Of a stretch of DNA of 64,000 nucleotides, positions 13,078 to 64,000 are shown one piece after another. The notes below the pieces were generated by a model. The model was not told where the DNA came from. It saw nothing but the letters and a program-made list of their open reading frames with translations, and ran no database searches. The stretch comes from Alphaproteobacteria bacterium (GTDB lineage: Bacteria > Pseudomonadota > Alphaproteobacteria > SP197): NCBI GenBank assembly GCA_965200215.1, contig OZ241369.1, positions 1,027,787-1,091,786 on the forward strand. The letters run 5' to 3'. Each line of letters opens with the position of its first letter. Positions within the stretch are counted from its first letter, which is position 1. The position numbers were made by a program, and so were the translations under genes.

Positions 13078-13155
13078 GGTGGCTATAGCTCAGCAGGTTA
13101 GAGCGCCTGGTTGTGGTCCAGGAGGCCGTCGGTTCGAATCCGACTAGCCACCCCA
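13078..13155 (+). tRNA. tRNA-His (anticodon GTG) with encoded G-1 and CCA
   Basis: Cloverleaf by eye: GGTGGCTA / D-arm GCTCAGCAGGTTAGAGC / anticodon stem CCTGG-TTGTGGT-CCAGG / T-arm GTCGGTTCGAATCCGAC / TAGCCACC-CCA. Very similar to E. coli tRNA-His. Confidence 0.9.
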
Positions 13156-23437: not shown

Positions 23438-23626
23438 GCGATGTGTTGGCATCCGCCCCAAGCGAGTGGCCCGCTTACCTGCCGGGGGCGTGCGCCGAGA
23501 GCTTGGGGCTTCGTTTGTTCCTTTTTGCAACCCATATCCGGAGGGATCTTTCCTGAAGAGATCGCACCCCACCTGGGCCAAACGACATTTGACACCATGG
23601 AACAACCGCAAACGGGGAGGACGGAC

Positions 23627-23908
23627 ATGAGACCACAGAAGACGGCGGCAGCCGACAGCCAGCAGCAGGAGGTCGACCGCAATTACAAGGCCTTCAAGAC
23701 GATGCTTCCCGAACTCATCAAGAGCGACGCCGGCAGAACGGCCCTGATGCGCGACGGAAAGGTCGTGGCCTGCTTCGATACGGATCGCGACGCCATCCAG
23801 GCCGGCCGCACGATGTTCGAGGATCAGCGCTTCTCGATTCAGGAAGTCACCAATCGCGCCGTCGATCTTGGGTATTTCTCCCGTGTCGGCGTTCTCGGGG
23901 CGGTTTGA
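23627..23908 (+). CDS. hypothetical protein (93 aa)
   Basis: ORF with GGGGAGGA RBS 7 nt upstream; no recognisable family. Confidence 0.45.
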   Translation: MRPQKTAAADSQQQEVDRNYKAFKTMLPELIKSDAGRTALMRDGKVVACFDTDRDAIQAGRTMFEDQRFSIQEVTNRAVDLGYFSRVGVLGAV

Positions 23909-24332
23909 CTGGAACGCCGGCCTGATCTGGCAGGTCGGCTTCGTTTCTGGAGCCACCCCAGTGGCGGCTGCGGGCACTCCCGGCGCGCTTCATGTCTGCC
24001 CAGCACTCGTCGACACCGGTGCGACACGGACTTGTATTGCAAAATCCGTTGTCGAAGCCCTTGGCCTGCACTCCATCGGAAGAACAAGCATGGACACTGC
24101 TGGAGGAGCGGCCAATGCCAATATCTACGACACGCATATCGTTCTATTGACGGATCATGCGCAGAACCCAGACGGGACCGTCGATGTACAAGCTCAATTA
24201 TTTCATAATATCAGGGTGCTGGAATTCGTCGCCGATGGGAATACGCCCTATCAGGCCTTGATCGGGCGTGACATTCTGCGCATCGGTATGCTCACGATGT
24301 CGCGGGATGGCTATTTTTCCTTTGCGTTTTGA
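23868..24332 (+). CDS. retropepsin-like (clan AA) aspartic protease family protein; start uncertain (TTG 23868 or GTG about 23883, or frameshift fusion with the upstream ORF)
   Basis: Motifs ALVDTGATRTCI (D-T/S-G-A active site) and ALIGRDIL flap/helix region. Confidence 0.55.
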   Translation: MGISPVSAFSGRFDWNAGLIWQVGFVSGATPVAAAGTPGALHVCPALVDTGATRTCIAKSVVEALGLHSIGRTSMDTAGGAANANIYDTHIVLLTDHAQNPDGTVDVQAQLFHNIRVLEFVADGNTPYQALIGRDILRIGMLTMSRDGYFSFAF

Positions 24333-24389
24333 GCTACGACACGAACAGGGGACTCCCGCTCCTGAGCGCCGTCGAGCCAGGCTGAGCCT

Positions 24390-25208
24390 ATGGCGAAGAA
24401 GCCCGGTGGAAAGGGCGAGAGCATCGCAACCCTCGATCCCGACGCGCTCCAGAAGCTCCTGTGCGAGCGTCTGTGCGAGGACGTAAGGGTCGAACGCCGT
24501 CCCGACGGCGCGCTGATGCTGCGCGCCCATTTCCGCTTCCCGGACGGCGATGGCTACCCCATCCATCTTTGCCAGGCGCCCGCCGGCGGGCTGCGGCTGT
24601 CGGATCGCGGCCACACCCTCATGCATCTGAGCTATGAGCACGACGTCGACATGTTCATGGACGGCACCCGCGCCATGCTGCTCGAACGCATCCTGACGGA
24701 GAGCGGTTTGCAGTGGGAGGGCGGCGCCTTGTGCCTGGACACCGCCCCGGAACGGCTGCCGGAGGCGCTGTTCCGCTTCGGCCAGGCGCTCACCAGGGTA
24801 TACGACCTGACCTTCCTCTCCCGTTCCAATGTCGGTTCCACCTTTTACGACGATCTCGCCGACCTTCTCCGCCAGCTGGTGGACGAGGACAAGATGCAGC
24901 GCGATTACCGGCCGGACGTGCCCAATGCCGACGCCTATCCGGTGGATTACCGCATCGAGGGCAAGGACGGCGTGCCGCTGTTCCTCTACGGCGTGCCCAA
25001 TCGCGACAAGGCGCGGCTAACGACCGTCATGTTGTCGCACTTCCATCGCCACGCGCTCGATTTCGAGTCCATCGTCGTGTTCGAGGACCAGGCCGAGATG
25101 CCCAGGATGGACCTGGCCCGCCTTTCGGACGTCGGCGGGGAGATGGTCGCATCGCTGGAATCGCGGGAGGATCTCGCACGCAAGCTGCGGTGGCGGATTG
25201 CGGCGTGA
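24390..25208 (+). CDS. hypothetical protein (DUF1828/DUF1829-like two-domain protein; assignment tentative)
   Basis: ORF track; codon usage typical of the host GC. Confidence 0.5.
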   Translation: MAKKPGGKGESIATLDPDALQKLLCERLCEDVRVERRPDGALMLRAHFRFPDGDGYPIHLCQAPAGGLRLSDRGHTLMHLSYEHDVDMFMDGTRAMLLERILTESGLQWEGGALCLDTAPERLPEALFRFGQALTRVYDLTFLSRSNVGSTFYDDLADLLRQLVDEDKMQRDYRPDVPNADAYPVDYRIEGKDGVPLFLYGVPNRDKARLTTVMLSHFHRHALDFESIVVFEDQAEMPRMDLARLSDVGGEMVASLESREDLARKLRWRIAA

Positions 25209-25214
25209 TGGCGC

Positions 25215-25600
25215 GGTGGGGGGTAGTGGCTGGTGGGTAGTGGATAGTGGATAGTGGATAGTGGTTAGTGGCCGGTAGCCAGTGGCCGGTGGTCGGTGGG
25301 AGTGGGTGGCTGGTGGCGGTGCCTAGCGGCTGGGGGGTGGTGTGTCGACGGGGCTTTGGGCCGTTTGCCGGTGGGGTGGCGGCGCTCGGGGGAATTTCGT
25401 GCGCGGGCGGGCCGGACGGCCCGCCGGGGGGCGGGACGCTGGCGGCGGTGCCTGGGGGTGGTGGCTGGCGGTGGCTGCCTGTTTTCATGCCGGGGCGCTG
25501 CCCCTCTCCTCCAGGTGCGCCCGTTCCCACTGGCCACTGGCCACCGGCCACCGGCTACTGGCCACCGGCCACTAACCACTAACCACTAGCCACTGGCCCC
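25215..25600. repeat. composite GC-rich repeat element (two heptamer arrays in inverted orientation flanking core)
   Basis: Motifs. Confidence 0.7.
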
Positions 25601-25665
25601 GCCCGGCGTATCGACGGTTTGGCTTTTCCGGGCCACACTGCGGGTGTGGCGTGGGGGTGGATTTC

Positions 25666-28600
25666 ATGGTGGGGAAGCGCAGGGGGGCGAAGAGCAAGGG
25701 GGTTGCCGCCTTTACCCATGAGGGGGCGCGGCGGGCGAACATTCCCACCGCCGAGCTCGACGCGGTGATGGCCGAGGGCGAGAAGGCGGCGGTTCGCATC
25801 GCCTATGAGCGCCGCAACCGAGATCTGGACCCGCAGCTGGTCTGGCGCGGCAAGGACGAGCAGGACCAGGCCGATCTGGTGGTCCAGGCGCCGCCGCTCT
25901 ACATCCAGGAGAAGGTGCACCCCAAGGCGCTGATCGACGACCTGCTGCGCCAGTCGAAGCGGCGGCGCGACGAGGCGGCCGAAGAGGCCCCGGACCTGTT
26001 CGCCGATTTCAACGGCCTGCCCGAAGGCGCCGCCCGAACCGAGTTCTACCGCCACGACGCCAACTGGTCGAACCGCATGATCCTGGGCGACGCGCTGCGG
26101 GTGATGGCCTCGCTGGCCGAGCGCGAGGGCCTGCGCGGCAAGGTGCAGGCGATCTATATCGACCCGCCCTACGGCATCCGCTTCAACTCCAACTTCCAGT
26201 GGTCCACCGGCAGCCGCGACGTGAAGGACGGCAAGGCGGCGCATATCACCCGCGAGCCGGAGCAGGTGAAGGCCTTTCGCGACACCTGGCGCGACGGCAT
26301 CCATTCCTATCTCTCCTATCTGCGCGACCGGCTGACGGTGGCCCGCGAGCTGCTGGCCCCGAGCGGCTCGGTATTCGTGCAGATCGGCGACGAGAACGTC
26401 CACCGGGTGCGGGCGGTGATGGACGAGGTGTTCGGGGAGGGGAATTTCGTCAACCAGATCAACTGCCGCACGAATAGCGGAACCACAAGAGGCGACTCAC
26501 TCAAGCGAACGAACGACTACCTGCTTTGGTACGCAAAGAATATCGAAAGCAAGAAGTTTCGGCGATTGCTGGTTGAGCGAGACGTCGAAACAAACATGTA
26601 TAGTCAGCTCCTTTTTGAGGATTTGTCAGTTCGTCCCATGACTCAGGAAGAGAAGAAAAAGCCAACGCTAATTCCCGACACGGCTAGAGCATATAGGAAA
26701 TTACCACTCCACTCGATGAACGCCGGAGACCATACACCGCGGAAAGCATTCGGAAGGTATTGGAAAATACCATCTAACCGCAGTTGGCGCCATTCCCTGG
26801 CCGGTTTCGACCGGCTCTTGCGGTCATCTCGAATACAAGCAGACCTGAGTGCTCTTAGCAGCCGCTATTTCCACAGCGACTATATCGCCTCCGAGCTAAC
26901 CGAGACTTGGGTGGATACAGGCCCCGAAGTGGACAAGTCCTACGTAGTCCAGACGTCCGAGCGGATTGTCCAACGCTGCCTGCTGATGACCACCGACCCC
27001 GGCGACCTGGTGCTGGACCCGACCTGCGGTTCCGGCACCACCGCCTATGTCGCCGAGCAATGGGGCCGGCGCTGGATCACCATCGACACCTCGCGGGTGG
27101 CGCTGGCGCTGGCCCGGGCGCGGATCATGGGCGCGCGCTATCCCTGGTATATCCTGGCCGACAGCCCGGAAGGGCAGAGGAAGGAAGCGGAACTGGACCG
27201 GCGCGCGCCTTCCGAGGCGGCGACCGGCGGCGATGTCCGCCAGGGCTTCGTCTATCGGCGGGTGCCGCATGTGACGCTGAAATCGATCGCCAACAATGCG
27301 GAGATCGATGCGATCTGGGAGAGGTGGGAGGGGGTGTTGGGGGCGTTGCGGAGTCAACTATCAGTTGCCAGTGGCCAGTCGCCAGTGGCCAGTGACCGGC
27401 AACCGGCGACTGGCGACCGGCCACCGGCCACCGGCAACCGGCCACTGGAGGAATGGCAGATTCCCCGCGAGGCTGGCGCCGGCTGGCCCGACGAGGCGAA
27501 GGCGGCGCATGCCGAGTTCTGGCAGGCGCGCATCGGACGGCAGAAGGAGATCGACGCCTCCATCGCCGCCAGGGCCGACAGCGAATATCTCTACGACAAG
27601 CCCTATGAGGACAGGGAGCGCATCCGCGTCGCCGGCCCGTTCACGGTGGAAAGCCTGGCGCCGCACCGCACCGTGGCCAGCGAGGGGGAAGGCGCCGCCG
27701 AAGACGGCCACGGATACCACGGCGGCGGGGCCTTCCCGGAACGCGATTTCACCGCCCTGGTGCTGGAGCAGCTGCGGGCTGCCGGCGTGCAGCAGGCCCG
27801 CAAGGACGACCGCATCGACATCGCCTCCATCGAGGGCTGGCCGGGGCGTTCCATCTGCGCCACGGGGCGCTTTCGCGAAGGCGGGGCCGAACGCCGGGCC
27901 GGCATCCTGATCGGCCCCGAATTCGGCACCGTTTCCAAGCCCGACCTGACCGCCGCCGCCCGCGAGGCGGCCGAGGCCGGTTTCGACGCGCTGATCGCCT
28001 GCGCCTTCAGCTACGACGCCCATGCCAGCGAGTTCGACCGCCTGGGCCGGGTGCCGGTGCTGAAGGCGCGCATGAACGCCGATCTGCACATGGCCGGCGA
28101 GCTGAAGAACACCGGCAAGGGGAACCTGTTCGTGGTGTTCGGGGAGCCTGATATAGAAGTGGCCGGTGGCCGGTGGCTAGTGGCCAGAAACGGGAAGATG
28201 ATCGCGCGTTATGAGCACGTCAAAGAGCTATCAGGACTTGGAAGTCTGGAAGAAATCAATGGAGCTGGCGGAAGAGGTCTATCGGCTCTCTGCCGGGTGG
28301 CCGGCGGAGGAGCGATTCGGTCTGACCGGTCAGATGCGCCGCGCGACGGTGTCCATCCCGGCGAACATCGCGGAGGGAGCGGAGCGGCACGGAACGCGGG
28401 AGTTTCTCCACTTTCTGGGGATAGCGAGCGGCTCCCTGGCGGAAACGGAGACCCTTCTGATTCTGGCCCGGAGGCTGGGGATGTCTCCGCCCGAACGGAT
28501 TTCACCGCTTCTGGAACGAGCCGGGGAGATCGGACGGATGCTCAACGGCCTCAAGCGATCGCTGCGATCGAGGCATTGAACGACGGCGACTTCCCGCTTT

Positions 28601-28944
28601 CACTGACCACCGGCCACTGGCTACAGGTCGCCATTCGCGGTATCGACATTTATCGCCCCGACACGGGTCAGATTCACAGCGACGGTCCCGACGGCATCGC
28701 GCTGTGGTTCGTGGACAGCGACTACAACGAGGAGAGCTTTTTCGTTCGCCAGGCCTATTTCCTGGGCGCCAACGACCCCTACAAGGCGCTGAAGACGACG
28801 CTGAAGGCCGAGATCGACCCGCAGGCCTGGGCGAGCCTGAACAGCGACACCTCCCGCCCCTTCCCCGCCCCCGCCTCGGGCCGCATCGCCGTCAAGGTCA
28901 TCAACCACCTGGGCGACGAGGCGATGAAGGTGTTCCGGGTGTGA
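25666..28944 (+). CDS. type III-like Mod DNA methyltransferase (beta-class N6A/N4C MTase: motif IV IYIDPPYG precedes motif I DPTCGSGTT), mosaic ORF with AT-richer TRD (about 26460-26900) and two repeat-associated insertions; integrity uncertain
   Basis: ORF track 25651..28944 (ATG 25666 alternative). MTase motifs. Conserved C-terminal module ...RIAVKVINHLGDEAMKVFRV. Confidence 0.65.
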   Translation: MVGKRRGAKSKGVAAFTHEGARRANIPTAELDAVMAEGEKAAVRIAYERRNRDLDPQLVWRGKDEQDQADLVVQAPPLYIQEKVHPKALIDDLLRQSKRRRDEAAEEAPDLFADFNGLPEGAARTEFYRHDANWSNRMILGDALRVMASLAEREGLRGKVQAIYIDPPYGIRFNSNFQWSTGSRDVKDGKAAHITREPEQVKAFRDTWRDGIHSYLSYLRDRLTVARELLAPSGSVFVQIGDENVHRVRAVMDEVFGEGNFVNQINCRTNSGTTRGDSLKRTNDYLLWYAKNIESKKFRRLLVERDVETNMYSQLLFEDLSVRPMTQEEKKKPTLIPDTARAYRKLPLHSMNAGDHTPRKAFGRYWKIPSNRSWRHSLAGFDRLLRSSRIQADLSALSSRYFHSDYIASELTETWVDTGPEVDKSYVVQTSERIVQRCLLMTTDPGDLVLDPTCGSGTTAYVAEQWGRRWITIDTSRVALALARARIMGARYPWYILADSPEGQRKEAELDRRAPSEAATGGDVRQGFVYRRVPHVTLKSIANNAEIDAIWERWEGVLGALRSQLSVASGQSPVASDRQPATGDRPPATGNRPLEEWQIPREAGAGWPDEAKAAHAEFWQARIGRQKEIDASIAARADSEYLYDKPYEDRERIRVAGPFTVESLAPHRTVASEGEGAAEDGHGYHGGGAFPERDFTALVLEQLRAAGVQQARKDDRIDIASIEGWPGRSICATGRFREGGAERRAGILIGPEFGTVSKPDLTAAAREAAEAGFDALIACAFSYDAHASEFDRLGRVPVLKARMNADLHMAGELKNTGKGNLFVVFGEPDIEVAGGRWLVARNGKMIARYEHVKELSGLGSLEEINGAGGRGLSALCRVAGGGAIRSDRSDAPRDGVHPGEHRGGSGAARNAGVSPLSGDSERLPGGNGDPSDSGPEAGDVSARTDFTASGTSRGDRTDAQRPQAIAAIEALNDGDFPLSLTTGHWLQVAIRGIDIYRPDTGQIHSDGPDGIALWFVDSDYNEESFFVRQAYFLGANDPYKALKTTLKAEIDPQAWASLNSDTSRPFPAPASGRIAVKVINHLGDEAMKVFRV
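27355..27450. repeat. palindromic heptamer-repeat array inserted in-frame inside the Mod coding region
   Basis: GCCAGTG/GCCAGTC units followed by their inverse (CCGGCAA/CCGGCGA...); translates as VASGQSPVASDRQPATGDRPPATGNRP. Confidence 0.75.
28211..28579 (+). CDS. four-helix-bundle protein (23S rRNA intervening-sequence protein family-like), nested inside the Mod ORF in a different frame
   Basis: ORF track. Sequence MSTSKSYQDLEVWKKSMELAEEVYRLS...IPANIAEG...ETETLLILARRLG matches my recollection of that family. Flanked by heptamer repeats at about 28160-28195 and 28595-28625. Confidence 0.6.
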   Translation: MSTSKSYQDLEVWKKSMELAEEVYRLSAGWPAEERFGLTGQMRRATVSIPANIAEGAERHGTREFLHFLGIASGSLAETETLLILARRLGMSPPERISPLLERAGEIGRMLNGLKRSLRSRH

Positions 28945-28948
28945 GGCC

Positions 28949-30079
28949 ATGGCGGGGCTGGACTGGATCACCATCGAGGGTTTCAAGAGCATCGCCTCCA
29001 TCGAGAGGCTGCCGCTGCGCCCGATCAACGTGCTGATCGGCGCCAACGGTTCGGGGAAGTCGAATTTCGTCGAGGCCTTTTCGTTTCTGCACGCGATACG
29101 GTCCAGGAAGCATCACGACCATGTCATGCGCGCGGGGGGCGGCGACAGGATTCTTCATTTCGGCGCGCGAACGACGCCCCAGTTGAAGCTTCACATCTCT
29201 TTCGAAGAACAAGTGTATCAATATGAGATAGCACTGGCGCCGGACGATGGAGATCACCTCTTTCCGTCGGGGGAATGTACCTATTTCTGGAACAAACATG
29301 TGTATGAACCTTACATCGAGCCCCTTATGGGAAGCCATGGCCATGCGGGCATCAGCCGCCCGTATTTCAAGCCAACAACACCCACAGCGAATTATGTCCA
29401 GAAGCACCTGGACAGCTGGCGCCTGTATCACTTCCCGGATACCGGCGCCGCATCGCCGCTGAAGAAGACGGGCGACGTAAACGACAACCGCTTTCTGCGG
29501 CCCGACGGCTCCAACCTGGCGGCGTTCCTGTATCGGCTGCGCGAGACGGAGCAGGACCGCTACCGGCTGATACGGGACACGGTGCGCCTGGCGGCGCCGT
29601 TCTTCGAGGATTTCGCGCTCGAACCCCTGGTCCTGCACGAGGACAAGATCCCCCTGGAGTGGAAGCACCGGGGGAAAGACGCCTATTTCGACGCCTCCTC
29701 CCTTTCGGACGGCACCCTGCGCTTCATGGCGCTGGCGACGCTGCTGCTTCAGCCGCAGACGCTGCGGCCCTCGGCCATCCTCCTGGACGAGCCGGAACTG
29801 GGCCTGCACCCCTATGCCATCGCGCTTCTCGCCTCGCTGATCGGGCAGGCTTCGGCCGAGACCCAGGTGATTCTGGCCACCCAGTCCTCGCTGCTGCTGG
29901 ACCATTTCAGCCCCGAAGACGTGCTGGTGGCGGAGCGGGCGCGCGGGGCCACCACGCTGACCCGGCTGAAGCCCGAAGAGCTGAAGGAATGGCTGGACGA
30001 CTACAGCCTGGGCCAGCTGTGGGAGAAGAACGAGTTCGGCGGGCGCCCCTCACCCGAAGAGGCGGGCGAGAGGGGATGA
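28949..30079 (+). CDS. AAA_21/ABC-type ATPase (OLD/abortive-infection-like ATPase; Walker A GANGSGKSN, Walker B LLDEPELGLHP)
   Basis: ORF track; start immediately after the Mod stop. Confidence 0.7.
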   Translation: MAGLDWITIEGFKSIASIERLPLRPINVLIGANGSGKSNFVEAFSFLHAIRSRKHHDHVMRAGGGDRILHFGARTTPQLKLHISFEEQVYQYEIALAPDDGDHLFPSGECTYFWNKHVYEPYIEPLMGSHGHAGISRPYFKPTTPTANYVQKHLDSWRLYHFPDTGAASPLKKTGDVNDNRFLRPDGSNLAAFLYRLRETEQDRYRLIRDTVRLAAPFFEDFALEPLVLHEDKIPLEWKHRGKDAYFDASSLSDGTLRFMALATLLLQPQTLRPSAILLDEPELGLHPYAIALLASLIGQASAETQVILATQSSLLLDHFSPEDVLVAERARGATTLTRLKPEELKEWLDDYSLGQLWEKNEFGGRPSPEEAGERG

Positions 30080-30321
30080 CGCGCCTGCTCGTGCATGTGG
30101 AAGGCCAGACGGAGGAGAGTTTCGTCGACCGGATTCTGGCGCCTCACCTTTACCGGCGCGGCTTTTCTTCGATCGGCGCCCGCCTGCTCGGCAACGCCCG
30201 CCAGCGCGAGCGGCGCGGCGGCATCAAGCCCTGGCACGCGGCCCGCAGGGACATCCTGGGCCATCTGCGGCAGGACCGCGAGGCCGTGGCCAGTGGCCGG
30301 TGGCTAGTGGTTAGTGGCTAG
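30076..30321 (+). pseudogene. DUF4276-like gene remnant (N-terminal about 80 aa: MTRLLVHVEGQTEESFVDRILAPHLY...), truncated by insertion of a repeat element
   Basis: ATGA start/stop overlap with the ATPase. Family members are about 200 aa (from memory). ORF ends inside a long heptamer array. Confidence 0.5.
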
Positions 30322-30560
30322 TGGTTAGTGGCTAGTGGTTAGTGGCTAGTGGTTAGTGGCTAGTGGTTAGTGGTCGGTGGGCGGTGGCCAGTAGCCGGTG
30401 GCTAGTGGTTAGTGGTTAGTGGGAGCGGGTGGTGGGGGTGGTGCCTGGCGGTGGGGTGTGGTGCGTTGACGGGCCTGCGGCCCGTTTGCCGGCGGGACGC
30501 CGGCGCTCCCAGGGGGGCGCCGGGTGGCGGGGGCGCGGTAAGGGCGGCAACCATGGCGAG
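30290..30560. repeat. composite GC-rich repeat element with long heptamer array ((GGCTAGT GGTTAGT) x7)
   Basis: Direct inspection. Confidence 0.8.
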
Positions 30561-30640
30561 GAGGCGATGCGAGGTGTTTCGGGTGTGACGGCGACTCCAA
30601 CATCCAGTATCGTATGCGACACGGCTTGGGGGGATTGAGC

Positions 30641-32116
30641 ATGAGCGGACCTGCCAGCGATTCTTCGCCCAATCGGTCGCCGAAGGCTCCCGATGTGCGC
30701 ATCTCCGTCAGCAATTTCGGCCCCATCGCGAAGGGAAGCATCGACCTTCGGCCCATGAACATCTTCGTCGGGCCGAGCAACACGGGCAAGACCTATTTTG
30801 CCACCTTGATCTATGCAATTCATCGAATCACGAGGGGTTTTCCGCGACTCCCTCCAACTATGAGCTACATTTTCAACGATGTTGAAAATTTTGCGGGGGT
30901 GATTTACCAGATTGTTAAGAATTTTGACTCTGGACAAAGAAATCATCCTGGATCCGGGCGCGACCGGATTCAGCCCACGCTTATCGATCACAATCCCGTG
31001 GCCCATGACTGGGAAATTGAATTAGAGCGTTGCTTCGATGTCGGTGCTCTTTCCGAACTGATTCAGACTCAAAGCGAATCAACCGGAGCAAAGATCGATC
31101 TGTCAATCGAGGATAAAAAGAGCCTCCTTTGGAATTTTCATGTAAAGGTGCCGACTCACGGTATTCGGGGCGATGGAAAGATAGGGAATTTCAAAATTGA
31201 GCACATATTTCCTGATTTCGAAAAGAAAGCTGAAAAAGTATTCTCGGCCAATTCAATAATAGAGGCTATAACCAACCTACAGAAACTGTTCGAATTCGAG
31301 AAATCAAACGAATCCGACGTGTACTACCTGCCATCCGACAGAGGCGGTCTCATACATAGCCACCCCGCTATCGCAATATCTTTGCTTAAACGTGCAACTC
31401 GACTGAACACCAAGCGCCATTCGGAGATCCCCACTTTCTCCGGGGTTATGACCGATTTCATGCGGCATATCATCGCCTATGAGGATTCCGAACTGCGTGA
31501 CGAAAAGCCGGAGAACGAGTTGGCGAAAATCGCGAGCGAATTGGAAAGCCGGGTGCTCGATGGAAGGATCGAGACTGTCCGGGCAGCGTCCCGCGGCTAT
31601 CCTGACGTGGTGTATCGGCCGGAGGGAATGGAAAAGGGCATGCGGTTGAATCGCGCCTCGTCCATGGTATCCGAACTCGCGCCGGTGGTCCTCTTCATCC
31701 GTGGCCATGTTCGCGTCGGCGACACCGTAATCATCGACGAGCCGGAAGCCCATCTTCATCCCGCCGCGCAGACCGAGATGGCGACGGCGCTGGCGCGTCT
31801 GGTGCGGGCCGGCGTTCGGGTGGTGATGACCACGCACAGCGAATGGCTGCTCCAGGAGATCGGCAACCTGATGCGGGAGGGGGAGTTGGGGGAAGGGAAT
31901 GGCGACTCTCCGAGTCTTCATCCTCGCGACGTCGGCGCCTGGCTATTCAAGAAGAAAGGATCGGAGGGCTCCAACGTGGAGGAGATTCGATTCGACCGCA
32001 TCGAAGGCATCGGGCCGCCGGATTACGAAGACGTCGCCGAAAGCCTCTATAACCGCTCGGCAGAGCTGCAGAACCGCCTCGCAGAGACGGACGGCGGCGG
32101 CGAGTCGGGGGCATGA
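30641..32116 (+). CDS. AAA-type ATPase (AAA_15/21-like; Walker A VGPSNTGKTYF, Walker B VIIDEPEAHLHP), AT-richer gene
   Basis: ATG 30641 (GGGGGA RBS) within ORF 30614..32116. Confidence 0.7.
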   Translation: MSGPASDSSPNRSPKAPDVRISVSNFGPIAKGSIDLRPMNIFVGPSNTGKTYFATLIYAIHRITRGFPRLPPTMSYIFNDVENFAGVIYQIVKNFDSGQRNHPGSGRDRIQPTLIDHNPVAHDWEIELERCFDVGALSELIQTQSESTGAKIDLSIEDKKSLLWNFHVKVPTHGIRGDGKIGNFKIEHIFPDFEKKAEKVFSANSIIEAITNLQKLFEFEKSNESDVYYLPSDRGGLIHSHPAIAISLLKRATRLNTKRHSEIPTFSGVMTDFMRHIIAYEDSELRDEKPENELAKIASELESRVLDGRIETVRAASRGYPDVVYRPEGMEKGMRLNRASSMVSELAPVVLFIRGHVRVGDTVIIDEPEAHLHPAAQTEMATALARLVRAGVRVVMTTHSEWLLQEIGNLMREGELGEGNGDSPSLHPRDVGAWLFKKKGSEGSNVEEIRFDRIEGIGPPDYEDVAESLYNRSAELQNRLAETDGGGESGA

Positions 32117-61689: not shown

Positions 61690-61960
61690 GAGGCTGCGGG
61701 CCGGCGCTTTGGCTTGTGGCCGGTGGTCAGTGGTCGGTAGCCAGTGGCCAGTAGTCGGTGGTCGGTGGGAGCGGGAAATGGCGGTGGTGCCTGGCGGTGG
61801 GGGGCGGTGCGTCGGCGGGCCTTGCGGCCCGTTGCCGGCGGGACGCCGGCGCTCGGGGAACGGTGTGTGGGCGGGCCGGACGGCCCGCCGGGGGCGGGAC
61901 GCTCGGTCGGTGCCTGGTGGCGGCAAACGGCACCTGCCCATGTTCAAACCGGGGTGCCGG
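61690..61960. repeat. composite GC-rich repeat element (most complete copy: heptamers + GAGCGGG module + three stem-loops + GGCAAACGGCACCTGCCCATGTTCAAACC terminal module)
   Basis: Motifs. Confidence 0.75.
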
Positions 61961-62573
61961 CCAGGAAGGGCAGCAGGCGGCGCGCCGCGCCCGGCGTGGC
62001 GGCCCGCAGCACCCGGAAGCCCGCGCCCGCCTGCGCCAGGGCGGCGGCCACGTCGTCGCTGCCGCAGCCTTCGCCGACCAGGATGCCGCCCTGGGCGCCG
62101 GCGCGCCGGGCCGCCTCCATGTCGGAGGCGCGGTCGCCCAGCATCCAGGAGGCGGCGACGTCCAGCGCCAGGGCCTGGGCGGCGGCCAGCAGCATCCCCG
62201 GGGCCGGCTTGCGCATCCGCTCCTCGCCCGGCGCGAAGGGGGCGGCGAGGACGGCATCCCAGCGCGCCGGCGCCAGTTCGGCGGCGATGGCGCGCTGGAC
62301 GGCATCGAACTGCCGCCAGCCGAAGAGGCCGCGCCCGATGCCCGACTGGTTGGTGACCACCGCCACCGCCACGCCCGCCCGGTTGGCGGCGGCGATCAGG
62401 GCGGCGATGCCGGGCAGCAGGCGCACATCCTCCGCCCGCCGCAGCCAGCCCACCTCCTCCACCACCACGCCGTCGCGGTCGAGGAACAGGCACGGCCGGC
62501 CCGGCAGCGGCGGCGAGGCGATCTGGCGCCAGAGGCCGTCGCCGTCCAGCGGCCAGCGGGCCCCGGCGCTCAC
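61944..62573 (-). CDS. gmhB: D,D-heptose 1,7-bisphosphate phosphatase (HAD-IIIA)
   Basis: HAD motif CLFLDRDGVVVEE. Proposed GTG start overlapping upstream stop (GTGA). Start uncertain. Confidence 0.65.
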   Translation of the reverse strand: MSAGARWPLDGDGLWRQIASPPLPGRPCLFLDRDGVVVEEVGWLRRAEDVRLLPGIAALIAAANRAGVAVAVVTNQSGIGRGLFGWRQFDAVQRAIAAELAPARWDAVLAAPFAPGEERMRKPAPGMLLAAAQALALDVAASWMLGDRASDMEAARRAGAQGGILVGEGCGSDDVAAALAQAGAGFRVLRAATPGAARRLLPFLAGTPV

Positions 62574-63316
62574 CGGGCCTGGAGGAAGCGGCGCGAGGCC
62601 CCGGCCAGCGCCAGGCAGGTCAGGGTGCCGAAATGCCAGGCGCCGGTATCGATGCCGATGCGGTGGCGGCGCACCGCCGGGCGGGGGTGGATGGAATGGC
62701 CGTGCACCACCGTTCTGGGCAGGGCGCCCTGCCAGTCCAGGAACTCGTGGCGGATCCACATCATGTCTTCGGCCGTCTGGCTGGCCAGCGCCACGCCGGG
62801 GCGGATGCCGGCATGGACGAACAGATAATCGCCCTCCTCGTGGCAGAGCGCCAGGTTCTCCAGGAAGGCGCGGTGGGCGCCGGGCAGGCGCCGGCAGAGT
62901 TCGCCATGGACGCGGGCGGCTGGCTGGGCGGTATCGACGCCGTAGGAGGCCAGAGTGGCGGCCCCGCCCATATCGGGGCCGATCCACCAGCGCCCGGCCT
63001 GCCCATCCTCCAGGAAGCGCAGCATGGCGTCCTCGTGGTTGCCCTTCAGATGCACGCGCTCGAAGCCGTCGCCGGGCGGAGCGGTCAGCAGGTCGAGGAC
63101 GCGGCGCGAATCGGGGCCCCGGTCGACATAGTCGCCCAGGAAGACCAACAGCCGGCGCGGTTCGGGGCGGGAGGCGGCATCGGCGCGGATCGAGGCCAGC
63201 AGCCGGGCCAGCAGATCGGCCCGCCCGTGGACGTCGCCGACGGCATAGACCAGCCTGCCCTCGCCGACGTGCGCTGCCTGCGATCCGTTCCGCGCCACGG
63301 CCCCCTCCCCGGCCAT
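62570..63316 (-). CDS. serine/threonine protein phosphatase (calcineurin-like metallophosphoesterase, ApaH-like)
   Basis: ORF track. GDVHG...GDYVDRG...GNHE motifs. Confidence 0.8.
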   Translation of the reverse strand: MAGEGAVARNGSQAAHVGEGRLVYAVGDVHGRADLLARLLASIRADAASRPEPRRLLVFLGDYVDRGPDSRRVLDLLTAPPGDGFERVHLKGNHEDAMLRFLEDGQAGRWWIGPDMGGAATLASYGVDTAQPAARVHGELCRRLPGAHRAFLENLALCHEEGDYLFVHAGIRPGVALASQTAEDMMWIRHEFLDWQGALPRTVVHGHSIHPRPAVRRHRIGIDTGAWHFGTLTCLALAGASRRFLQAR

Positions 63317-63776
63317 AGACGTGAGTCAAGGTGCTTCGCAGCACTATAGACGTGAACGACAACGACACTAAGAGATTCACGAGAAAGTGAGAGATCGCTC
63401 AACAATGCTGAAAATGCCACCCAAACCAAGAACTGTAAATGAAGCAGTTAGTCAATATATTTGGCATTACTAACGTTCTAGGAAAACAAGAACTGTAAAT
63501 ATGGAGTAATGAAATATGACTGAATTTGAAATTTCTAGTATTGCTCTTCAGAGAAAAAATTTATGGGCTATCATTATCACAATTATTGCCACTATCTCAA
63601 TAGAAGTTTGGCAATGCCCTTGTCTTTTGAGTGGCTCCGGTGTCGATGGGGGCTGCTCCCGCCAAGCATCGCACGGAGCGCACCCTACCGCCACCCACAT
63701 GGAGGCGAAGCAGGCCGCCGACAGCGTGGGGGCGGCAGAGGTCCCGCGTCAAGCCGGCCCGATGGGGCGGCGGCCG

Positions 63777-63804
63777 TTGACAGCCCCGCTTCGCCGCCTA
63801 TAGT
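63777..63804 (+). promoter_or_regulatory. near-consensus sigma70-type promoter for rplU (TTGACA-16-TATAGT)
   Basis: By eye, about 50 nt upstream of the rplU start. Confidence 0.5.
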
Positions 63805-63856
63805 CGCCGTCCCTCGTGGCCGCCCCGGCGGCGGGGGCAGAGGGGAGCGTTGGGCG

Positions 63857-64000
63857 GTGTTCGCAGTCATCCAGACCGGCGGCAAGCAGTATCGGGTGGC
63901 CCAGGGCGACATCCTGGCCGTGGAGCGGCTGGCGGGCGAGGTGGGCGAACGCATCGCCTTCGAGCGCGTGCTGATGGTCGCCGACGGCGGCGATCTCGGC
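63857..64000 (+). CDS. rplU: 50S ribosomal protein L21 (5' part; continues beyond window)
   Basis: GTG 63857: (M)[30 protein letters not shown]... Confidence 0.85.

Follow-up and report, generated by a model that had tools for sequence, protein, structure and literature searches.

The AT-rich islet located between a phosphatase/heptose operon and the rplU promoter, in the 64,000-nucleotide stretch of alphaproteobacterial DNA analyzed here (the window), is best explained as a decaying and strain-variable remnant of imported DNA carrying a small orphan gene, orfB, that looks maintained; the probability attached to this reading is roughly 55%. According to this scheme, AT-rich DNA would have been acquired horizontally at this site by the ancestor of one shallow alphaproteobacterial clade, as an insert of at least two tandem small ORFs, orfA followed by orfB. 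The upstream orfA (39 aa) would have been dispensable and is already broken in the window. The downstream orfB would have kept its frame, together with a Shine-Dalgarno (SD) sequence and an ATG that are both invariant and, at the N-terminus, a dodecapeptide subject to purifying selection. Its C-terminal end would be undefined, the frame entering native GC-rich DNA and stopping where the hexamers of the rplU promoter provide a stop. The slot itself appears prone to recombination, with alleles that are mosaic relative to the flanks and, in distant relatives, a whole spacer swapped for another foreign gene. The best guess for the role of orfB is a small membrane-associated peptide, accessory and non-essential.

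Composition, setting and distribution of the islet

A preliminary description of the window had reported an abrupt drop in GC over about 300 bp upstream of rplU, and the windowed scan that it called for reveals exactly such a trough. In 100-nt windows, the GC fraction falls from 0.69–0.77 in the flanks to 0.54 at 63300–63399, reaches a minimum of 0.26 at 63488 and is back to 0.74 by 63650. The trough below 0.52 extends from 63305 to 63674 and is the deepest of the window (mean 0.710, sd 0.076), the islet proper having 26–45% GC against 71.0% for the window as a whole (Table 1). Elsewhere in the window, a lower-GC, defence-like island (23500–32100) contains AT-rich troughs at 24067–24298, 26441–26798, 29136–29382 and 30731–31548, with GC as low as 0.33. 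Its genes code for a DUF1828 protein, a 1097-aa N6_N4 DNA methylase and two ATPases of the AAA_21/AAA_15 (AbiEii/OLD-like) type.

On the left, the islet is adjacent to the 5′ end of a metallophosphatase gene. The annotated ATG (63316) is not preceded by an SD sequence, while GTG 63298 has GGGGAGG 5 nt upstream and is probably the true start; members of the phosphatase cluster are called either as 248-aa or as 242-aa proteins, half of them in the 242-aa form. On the right, rplU starts at GTG 63857, and its relatives match PF00829. The TTGACA-16-TATAGT promoter announced for rplU was recovered by a consensus scan. The islet lies upstream of this promoter, outside the 5′ UTR of rplU, and is separated from it by a GC-rich spacer with 9–17% divergence, in which tandem duplications and deletions vary by haplotype.

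Table 1. Coordinates of the islet, its ORFs, its repeats and the adjoining genes and promoters
Feature	Position	Strand	Basis or remark
Metallophosphatase (PF00149), first gene of a gmhB-gmhA-hldD-like heptose operon	62570–63316	-	left neighbour; likelier start GTG 63298
10-nt direct repeat ATAGACGTGA (two copies) flanking a small hairpin, GTGCTTCGCAGCAC (63332–63345)	63315–63355		copies at 63315–63324 and 63346–63355
AT-rich islet, 26–45% GC	63330–63625		composition profile, 100-nt scan; homologous islet in L081, L085, L087–L092
orfA remnant, 3′ two-thirds, ending at TGA 63440–63442	63372–63442	+	5′-truncated; frameshift by 1-nt deletion
Haplotype-specific insertion or duplication bounded by 18-nt repeat	63423–63500	+	repeat finder; ~42 nt inside; window and L087 only
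GGAG Shine-Dalgarno of orfB, in invariant ATGGAGTA block (63501–63508)	63503–63506	+	alignment, all haplotypes
orfB, orphan small ORF, 95 codons in the window	63516–63803	+	ORF list; core ~codons 1–57 (63516–63686)
Sigma-70-like site TTGAGA-16-(TG)GATAAT, antisense to orfB	63573–63600	-	consensus scan; points toward phosphatase operon
GC-rich imperfect 13-bp hairpin at AT/GC boundary	63634–63679		RNAalifold helix 7
GC-rich, indel-rich lineage-specific spacer, islet to rplU promoter	63640–63768		L082/L083 homology stops at 63768
rplU promoter TTGACA-16-TATAGT	63777–63804	+	consensus scan; kept in every haplotype and in L082/L083

The islet is not confined to the window. A phosphatase identical to that of the window (P0127) is found on a 2.76-Mb contig at NCBI, and close relatives are available as metagenome contigs from separate samples (L081, L085–L092), with flanking genes 95–98% identical to those of the window. 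The same islet occupies the same slot in eight contigs (L081, L085, L087, L088, L089, L090, L091 and L092), all with a phosphatase at least 90% identical; L086, which ends inside the conserved ATGGAGT block just upstream of orfB, is not counted among these carriers. Since the islet recurs in eight independent assemblies, it is heritable DNA and not an assembly artefact.

The next relatives, L082 and L083 (phosphatase ~80% identical), tell a different story: from the rplU −35 to the phosphatase ATG, their entire spacer is unlike that of the window and not homologous to it, and similarity picks up only at these two points. Their slot houses a gene of 259–267 aa with ~50% GC (L082:839–1642, L083:542–1321). 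Its product has a Cro/C1-type HTH at the N-terminus and, at the C-terminus, a weak resemblance to GIY-YIG/T5orf172. Of the Pfam matches, HTH_3 in L083 (E=3e-6) alone reaches the gathering score; a weak match to PADLOC PDC-S14 and a PHROG ‘endonuclease’ match are also seen. A homing-type nuclease of the free-standing kind is one possible identity, a defence gene another. Like the islet, this gene is lower-GC foreign DNA inserted between the rplU promoter and the phosphatase ATG, but it shares no sequence similarity with the islet, has the opposite orientation and, with 260 aa and ~50% GC, differs in size and composition. The distribution at this conserved syntenic position is thus patchy, with the islet in the clade defined by ≥90% phosphatase identity and an unrelated gene in L082/L083, and the slot therefore takes different foreign DNA in different lineages. 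Further away, rplU is found near the phosphatase in none of the 80 loci among the matches listed from GTDB representatives, the best match listed being 56% identical.

The foreign origin suggested in the preliminary description, or its alternative of a remnant of an integrated element, is upheld by the alien composition, the restriction to one shallow clade, the refilling of the slot in the next relatives, the decay of orfA and the lineage-specific deletions and duplications. The word ‘foreign’ itself refers to composition and distribution only, no donor lineage having been found. Silencing by MucR of foreign DNA rich in AT is documented in alpha-proteobacteria (PMC9410896), and the islet, as DNA of this kind, is a plausible, putative target of a MucR-type silencer. 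It resembles the xenogeneic AT-rich targets of MucR/Ros (PMC9410896) in a GC content ~40 points below background, clade restriction, orphan ORFs, decay and a replaceable slot. It differs from typical xenogeneic islands in being only ~300 bp long and in having no integrase, tRNA, att site, terminal inverted repeats (TIRs) or identifiable donor; binding of a silencer is putative.

Searches at the DNA and protein levels, together with a repeat finder, identified neither a donor nor mobility machinery (integrase, att site, TIR or flanking target site duplication). No inverted repeats bracket the islet, and its direct repeats fall inside it. A MITE or IS remnant was considered and discarded, there being no TIRs and no second copy in the window or in loci L001–L091. 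The BLAST search proposed in the preliminary description came back empty-handed, blastn of the islet against plasmids and phages returning nothing meaningful. Islet-specific 20–29-mers had no exact match in GTDB representatives, JGI metagenomes or IMG/VR; the 29-mer used for GTDB is drawn from sequence present in the window and L087 only, which makes the GTDB negative a weak one. With a 19-mer from the GC-rich boundary, 14 metagenome matches were obtained, all of 19–22 nt and all attributable to chance.

At the protein level, orfB (95 aa) has no word-sharing homolog among 5.8 billion proteins. An exhaustive phmmer search with its first 59 residues against 1.84 billion representatives gave one true match, P0136, encoded at this very locus in a relative. 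Neither orfB nor orfA has a homolog away from the rplU–phosphatase locus in these collections of 1.84 and 5.8 billion proteins, and no family of Pfam, PADLOC or PHROGs matches the islet ORFs.

The proximity of rplU raises the question of a leader, and the preliminary description had named as refuting its reading a known leader or regulatory element conserved at this place in related species. Half of this is observed: the islet is conserved upstream of rplU in close relatives, but it corresponds to no known leader. A ribosomal-protein L21 leader or autoregulatory RNA has practically no probability: its position beside rplU speaks for it and nothing else does, while Rfam at E≤10 returned chance matches alone over 62800–64000, the islet is located upstream of the conserved rplU promoter (−35 at 63777) and not in the 5′ UTR, and it is absent from L082 and L083, which retain promoter and rplU. 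The defining features of such a leader, a covariance-model match and a 5′ UTR location, are both missing, and this candidate was rejected. At the Rfam gathering score, the whole window yields tRNA-His (GTG, 13079–13155) alone, which is also its only ARAGORN match.

RNA structure provides little more. No intrinsic terminator was detected by a scan of either strand, and single-sequence folds are not better than those of shuffled sequences on either strand (z −1.14 and −1.76). RNAalifold proposes one 5-bp helix with three compensatory pairs, overall support being weak. At the AT/GC boundary, the 13-bp hairpin has four broken pairs and not one compensatory change; it was dismissed as a terminator, having no T-run.

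Decay, duplication and probable recombination in the slot

Both direct repeats mentioned in the preliminary description are present where it placed them. At the junction marked by ATAGACGTGA, L081, L085 and L086 carry a duplicated and degenerate phosphatase 5′ end, comprising approximately the first 26 nt (TCTATGGCTGGGGAGGCGG(G/A)CCGTGG) and situated ~45 nt upstream of the real start, and alignment makes this degenerate copy evidence of a partial duplication at the junction. In L081, the two copies of the 10-mer co-vary and both read TTAGGTCTAT on the phosphatase strand; among haplotypes, the 10-mer pair differs in step with the local duplications. The second repeat extends over 18 nt (AAACCAAGAACTGTAAAT and AAAACAAGAACTGTAAAT, i.e. 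AAA(C/A)CAAGAACTGTAAAT), with copies at 63423–63440 and 63483–63500, 60 nt apart. The motif noted earlier within it, AAGAACTGTAAAT, is paired only in the window and in L087, and is present as a single copy in every other haplotype. Since the second repeat is restricted to two haplotypes and the first varies in step with duplications, both are to be read as scars of local duplication or illegitimate recombination, and not as conserved functional units.

Comparison of haplotypes reveals successive states of the insert. The most complete version is that of L090, where a 39-aa orfA equipped with its own SD is followed, after a gap of 25 nt, by orfB. An intact orfA is found in L090 (MPKIPKYEIIPNNVPHEIHEKVRDSSNNAENATQTKNCI) and in P0142, and in L092, where the contig ends within it, its 3′ part is present. 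The copies of the window, L087 and L088 have lost the 5′ part of orfA and are shifted in frame by a 1-nt deletion; in the window, the remnant translates as ...EIHEKVRD before the frame changes. The 5′ part is also deleted in L089 and L091, and in L085 orfA is wholly absent.

The intergenic region evolves rapidly. In the flanking genes, pS is 0.02–0.05 within the group formed by the window, L085, L087 and L088, and 0.07–0.10 against L089/L090; in orfB, pS is 0.08–0.28 and pN 0.08–0.17, and the intergenic region as a whole is 3–7 times more diverged than the flanking synonymous sites. Mismatches of 10–30% and many indels are found at 63300–63800, which are the limits of the divergence peak; outside, mismatches are mostly 0–5%, with isolated 100-nt bins of up to 14% and a decay toward rplU. 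Amelioration was discarded as the cause of this fast divergence, polarized singleton changes showing no trend (17 S>W versus 12 W>S), a lack that also tells against the preferred reading.

The alleles of the slot are mosaic relative to their flanks. L085 and L087 have identical phosphatase genes (729/729 nt), yet the islet of L085 is ~20% diverged from that of the window and the islet of L087 is 93% identical to it; their rplU 5′ UTRs differ as well. Because identical phosphatase genes coexist with divergent islets, the pattern is best accounted for by homologous recombination that brought in alleles of more diverged relatives, in addition to weak constraint. The locus also marks a replaceable recombination slot adjoining a core ribosomal operon.

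orfB as a candidate gene

The reading frame of orfB conforms to the preliminary description, with a GGAG-preceded ATG at 63516 and the peptide as it was quoted, and the frame does run on beyond the AT-rich part, for a total of 95 codons to TAG 63801–63803. The chief rival explanation, judged possible but clearly the less probable one, is that of a wholly non-functional foreign remnant. In this reading, orfB would be no more than the 5′ part of a lost gene, joined to native DNA, and short divergence time, hitch-hiking and chance would account for the open frame and for the conservation of the 5′ end.

Evidence for maintenance is concentrated at the 5′ end. The SD block ATGGAGTA and the ATG are invariant in all haplotypes, amid a hypervariable region, which argues against an inert remnant. 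The same is true of codons 2–12, where all four variable sites are third-position and synonymous (P=0.002) and where variable sites are three-fold fewer than over the remaining codons (P=0.0015). The three indels of orfB (21, 3 and 6 nt) are all in frame, as opposed to the 1-nt indel a little way upstream, in the orfA remnant. None of the six distinct haplotypes interrupts the frame despite 49 variable sites, although a permutation test gives only P=0.067 for the absence of stops, a value that also suits the non-functional reading.

Several other properties are those expected of debris. Over codons 1–57, pN/pS is 0.48–0.96 and differences are spread evenly across codon positions, the variable core is equally free of stops in the antisense frame, and the sister orfA is visibly decaying. 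The Ile-richness that makes orfB hydrophobic is a default of ATT/ATC/ATA-rich DNA. In favour of a gene, variable residues lean to one face of a helix (P=0.06), which is suggestive only.

The 3′ end offers a further argument for the non-functional reading, as the stop is not conserved. The frame exits AT-rich DNA after ~38 codons and conservation is lost after approximately codon 55. In the window (95 aa) and in L087 (102 aa), the stop is the TAG at the centre of the rplU −10 hexamer TATAGT; in L089–L091, it is the TGA of the rplU −35 (72 aa). L085, L088 and L092 have no stop before or within rplU, and in the latter two the frame fuses to rplU. This in-frame fusion is an annotation artefact to watch for: P0136 (L092:124–750) is a false 208-aa ‘L21’ gene call with the islet peptide as an N-terminal extension, and gene callers predict orfB in no relative except as such a fusion.

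Weighing both sides, the 5′ end of orfB is concluded to be under constraint, arising most simply from translation, with the remainder evolving almost freely. The conserved 5′ block could instead be a regulatory site in DNA or RNA, and a weak hairpin at the start codon fits the same variable sites. In the preferred reading, orfB is probably still translated, and its product would be a small peptide whose Ile-rich helix is amphipathic or hydrophobic. Such a gene would be comparable to lineage-specific ORFan small protein genes, which like orfB have no homolog, are short and fast-evolving with a conserved N-terminus, and are missed by gene callers. It would differ from them in that unrelated native DNA supplies its C-terminus, in frames that vary from strain to strain, and in that its expression is putative.

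The consequences depend on expression. If expressed, orfB would neatly illustrate the survival of a tiny orphan gene in a decaying foreign insert of a very GC-rich genome, with selection visible only at the translation start and over the first 12 residues. If not, the islet would be ordinary genomic debris. A bolder proposal, considered doubtful, makes orfB the first member of a new family of small membrane-active peptides restricted to the clade, which would be toxin-like or would interact with the envelope or with phages. The N-terminus is conserved, and diversifying or balancing selection would act on one helix face, recombination maintaining its polymorphism. Positions 15, 19, 23, 26 and 30 have three to four alleles each among the six haplotypes, and the slot adjoins LPS-core heptose genes.

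Toxin-like and regulatory readings

Type-I toxin–antitoxin loci are of the Hok/Sok, Ibs/Sib, Ldr/Rdl and TisB/IstR types. The preliminary description had seen in orfB a single transmembrane helix reminiscent of small type-I toxins and had listed a small toxin or sRNA locus among its alternatives. In its full form, this reading proposes a type-I toxin–antitoxin-like module, in which the product of orfB would be a small toxin of the membrane, kept in check by an antisense RNA originating from the sigma-70-like site on the opposite strand (63600–63573). The islet shares with the known loci a small SD-preceded ORF, a hydrophobic helix in several haplotypes (19-residue Kyte–Doolittle maximum of 1.8–2.3 in four of six), a promoter-like site (TTGAGA-16-TGnGATAAT) on the opposite strand overlapping orfB, and an accessory, foreign character; the weak start-codon hairpin, able to sequester the initiation codon, would also suit such a module.

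The same comparison brings out what separates them. The hydrophobic stretch of L089 (LWADIITRIAAISIAVW) reaches 1.34 and that of L085 (LWTNFIRDIVAISILVW) 1.47, both with Asp/Arg inside, below the usual Kyte–Doolittle threshold for transmembrane segments, so that the stretch is not conserved in two of the six haplotypes. Type-I toxin ORFs have fewer than ~60 aa and a conserved stop, and orfB was rejected as one, with its 95, 72 or 102 codons or no stop at all (72 to >117 codons). Neither putative RNA has a terminator, the folds are not significant and hence no stable structure is seen, and no toxin or sRNA family of Rfam, Pfam, PADLOC or PHROG is matched. Homologs elsewhere are lacking, whereas type-I toxins usually form multi-copy families. 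Because the stop is undefined, terminators, family matches and paralogs are absent and the hydrophobic stretch is not kept in two haplotypes, the features that define type-I toxins are wanting and there is no good evidence for orfB as a toxin. A toxin–antitoxin module is thus regarded as improbable, and the earlier suggestion of a single-helix type-I toxin is not supported as it was put, the overall pN/pS of orfB (0.5–1.0) pointing the same way.

The antisense site also has a place in a regulatory reading, according to which the islet would mainly be a promoter and long 5′ UTR for the phosphatase/heptose operon, and/or a nucleation site for a MucR-like silencer, its conserved blocks being protein-binding sites rather than coding sequence. 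From its sequence, the site could be the promoter of an antisense RNA or that of the phosphatase operon, and could equally be a product of chance in 30% GC DNA, where promoter-like hexamers are expected. Its −10 is retained by the window, L089 and L092, has weakened in L085 and in L087, and has a changed spacing in L088 (by eye); neither the −35 nor the −10 is strictly conserved.

The case for regulation draws on a second promoter-like element, TTGGCA-17-TATCTA, located directly on the phosphatase start in L084, L089, L090 and L091. This element has been removed by rearrangement in the window, L087 and L088, where homology begins at TCTATGG, and the islet site is then the only sigma-70-like site on the phosphatase strand over 63100–64000. 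The silencing of AT-rich foreign DNA by MucR in alpha-proteobacteria (PMC9410896) is consistent with the second half of the proposal. Yet TATCTA does not have the conserved final T, which makes the ‘native promoter’ itself uncertain, and the islet, at 130–450 nt upstream of the rplU −35, is too far away to act as an UP element. Synonymous-only variation in the orfB frame would moreover be left unexplained, and a mainly regulatory role is considered unlikely.

Further along the heptose operon, the gmhA–gmhB intergenic segment (61716–61768) contains a degenerate tandem repeat of the heptamer GTGGTCG, with ~7.6 copies and additional scores at periods 14 and 21. The repeat region has a strong GC skew of +0.4 and a strong AT skew of −0.4, and it carries indels of 43–49 nt in L089 and L090.
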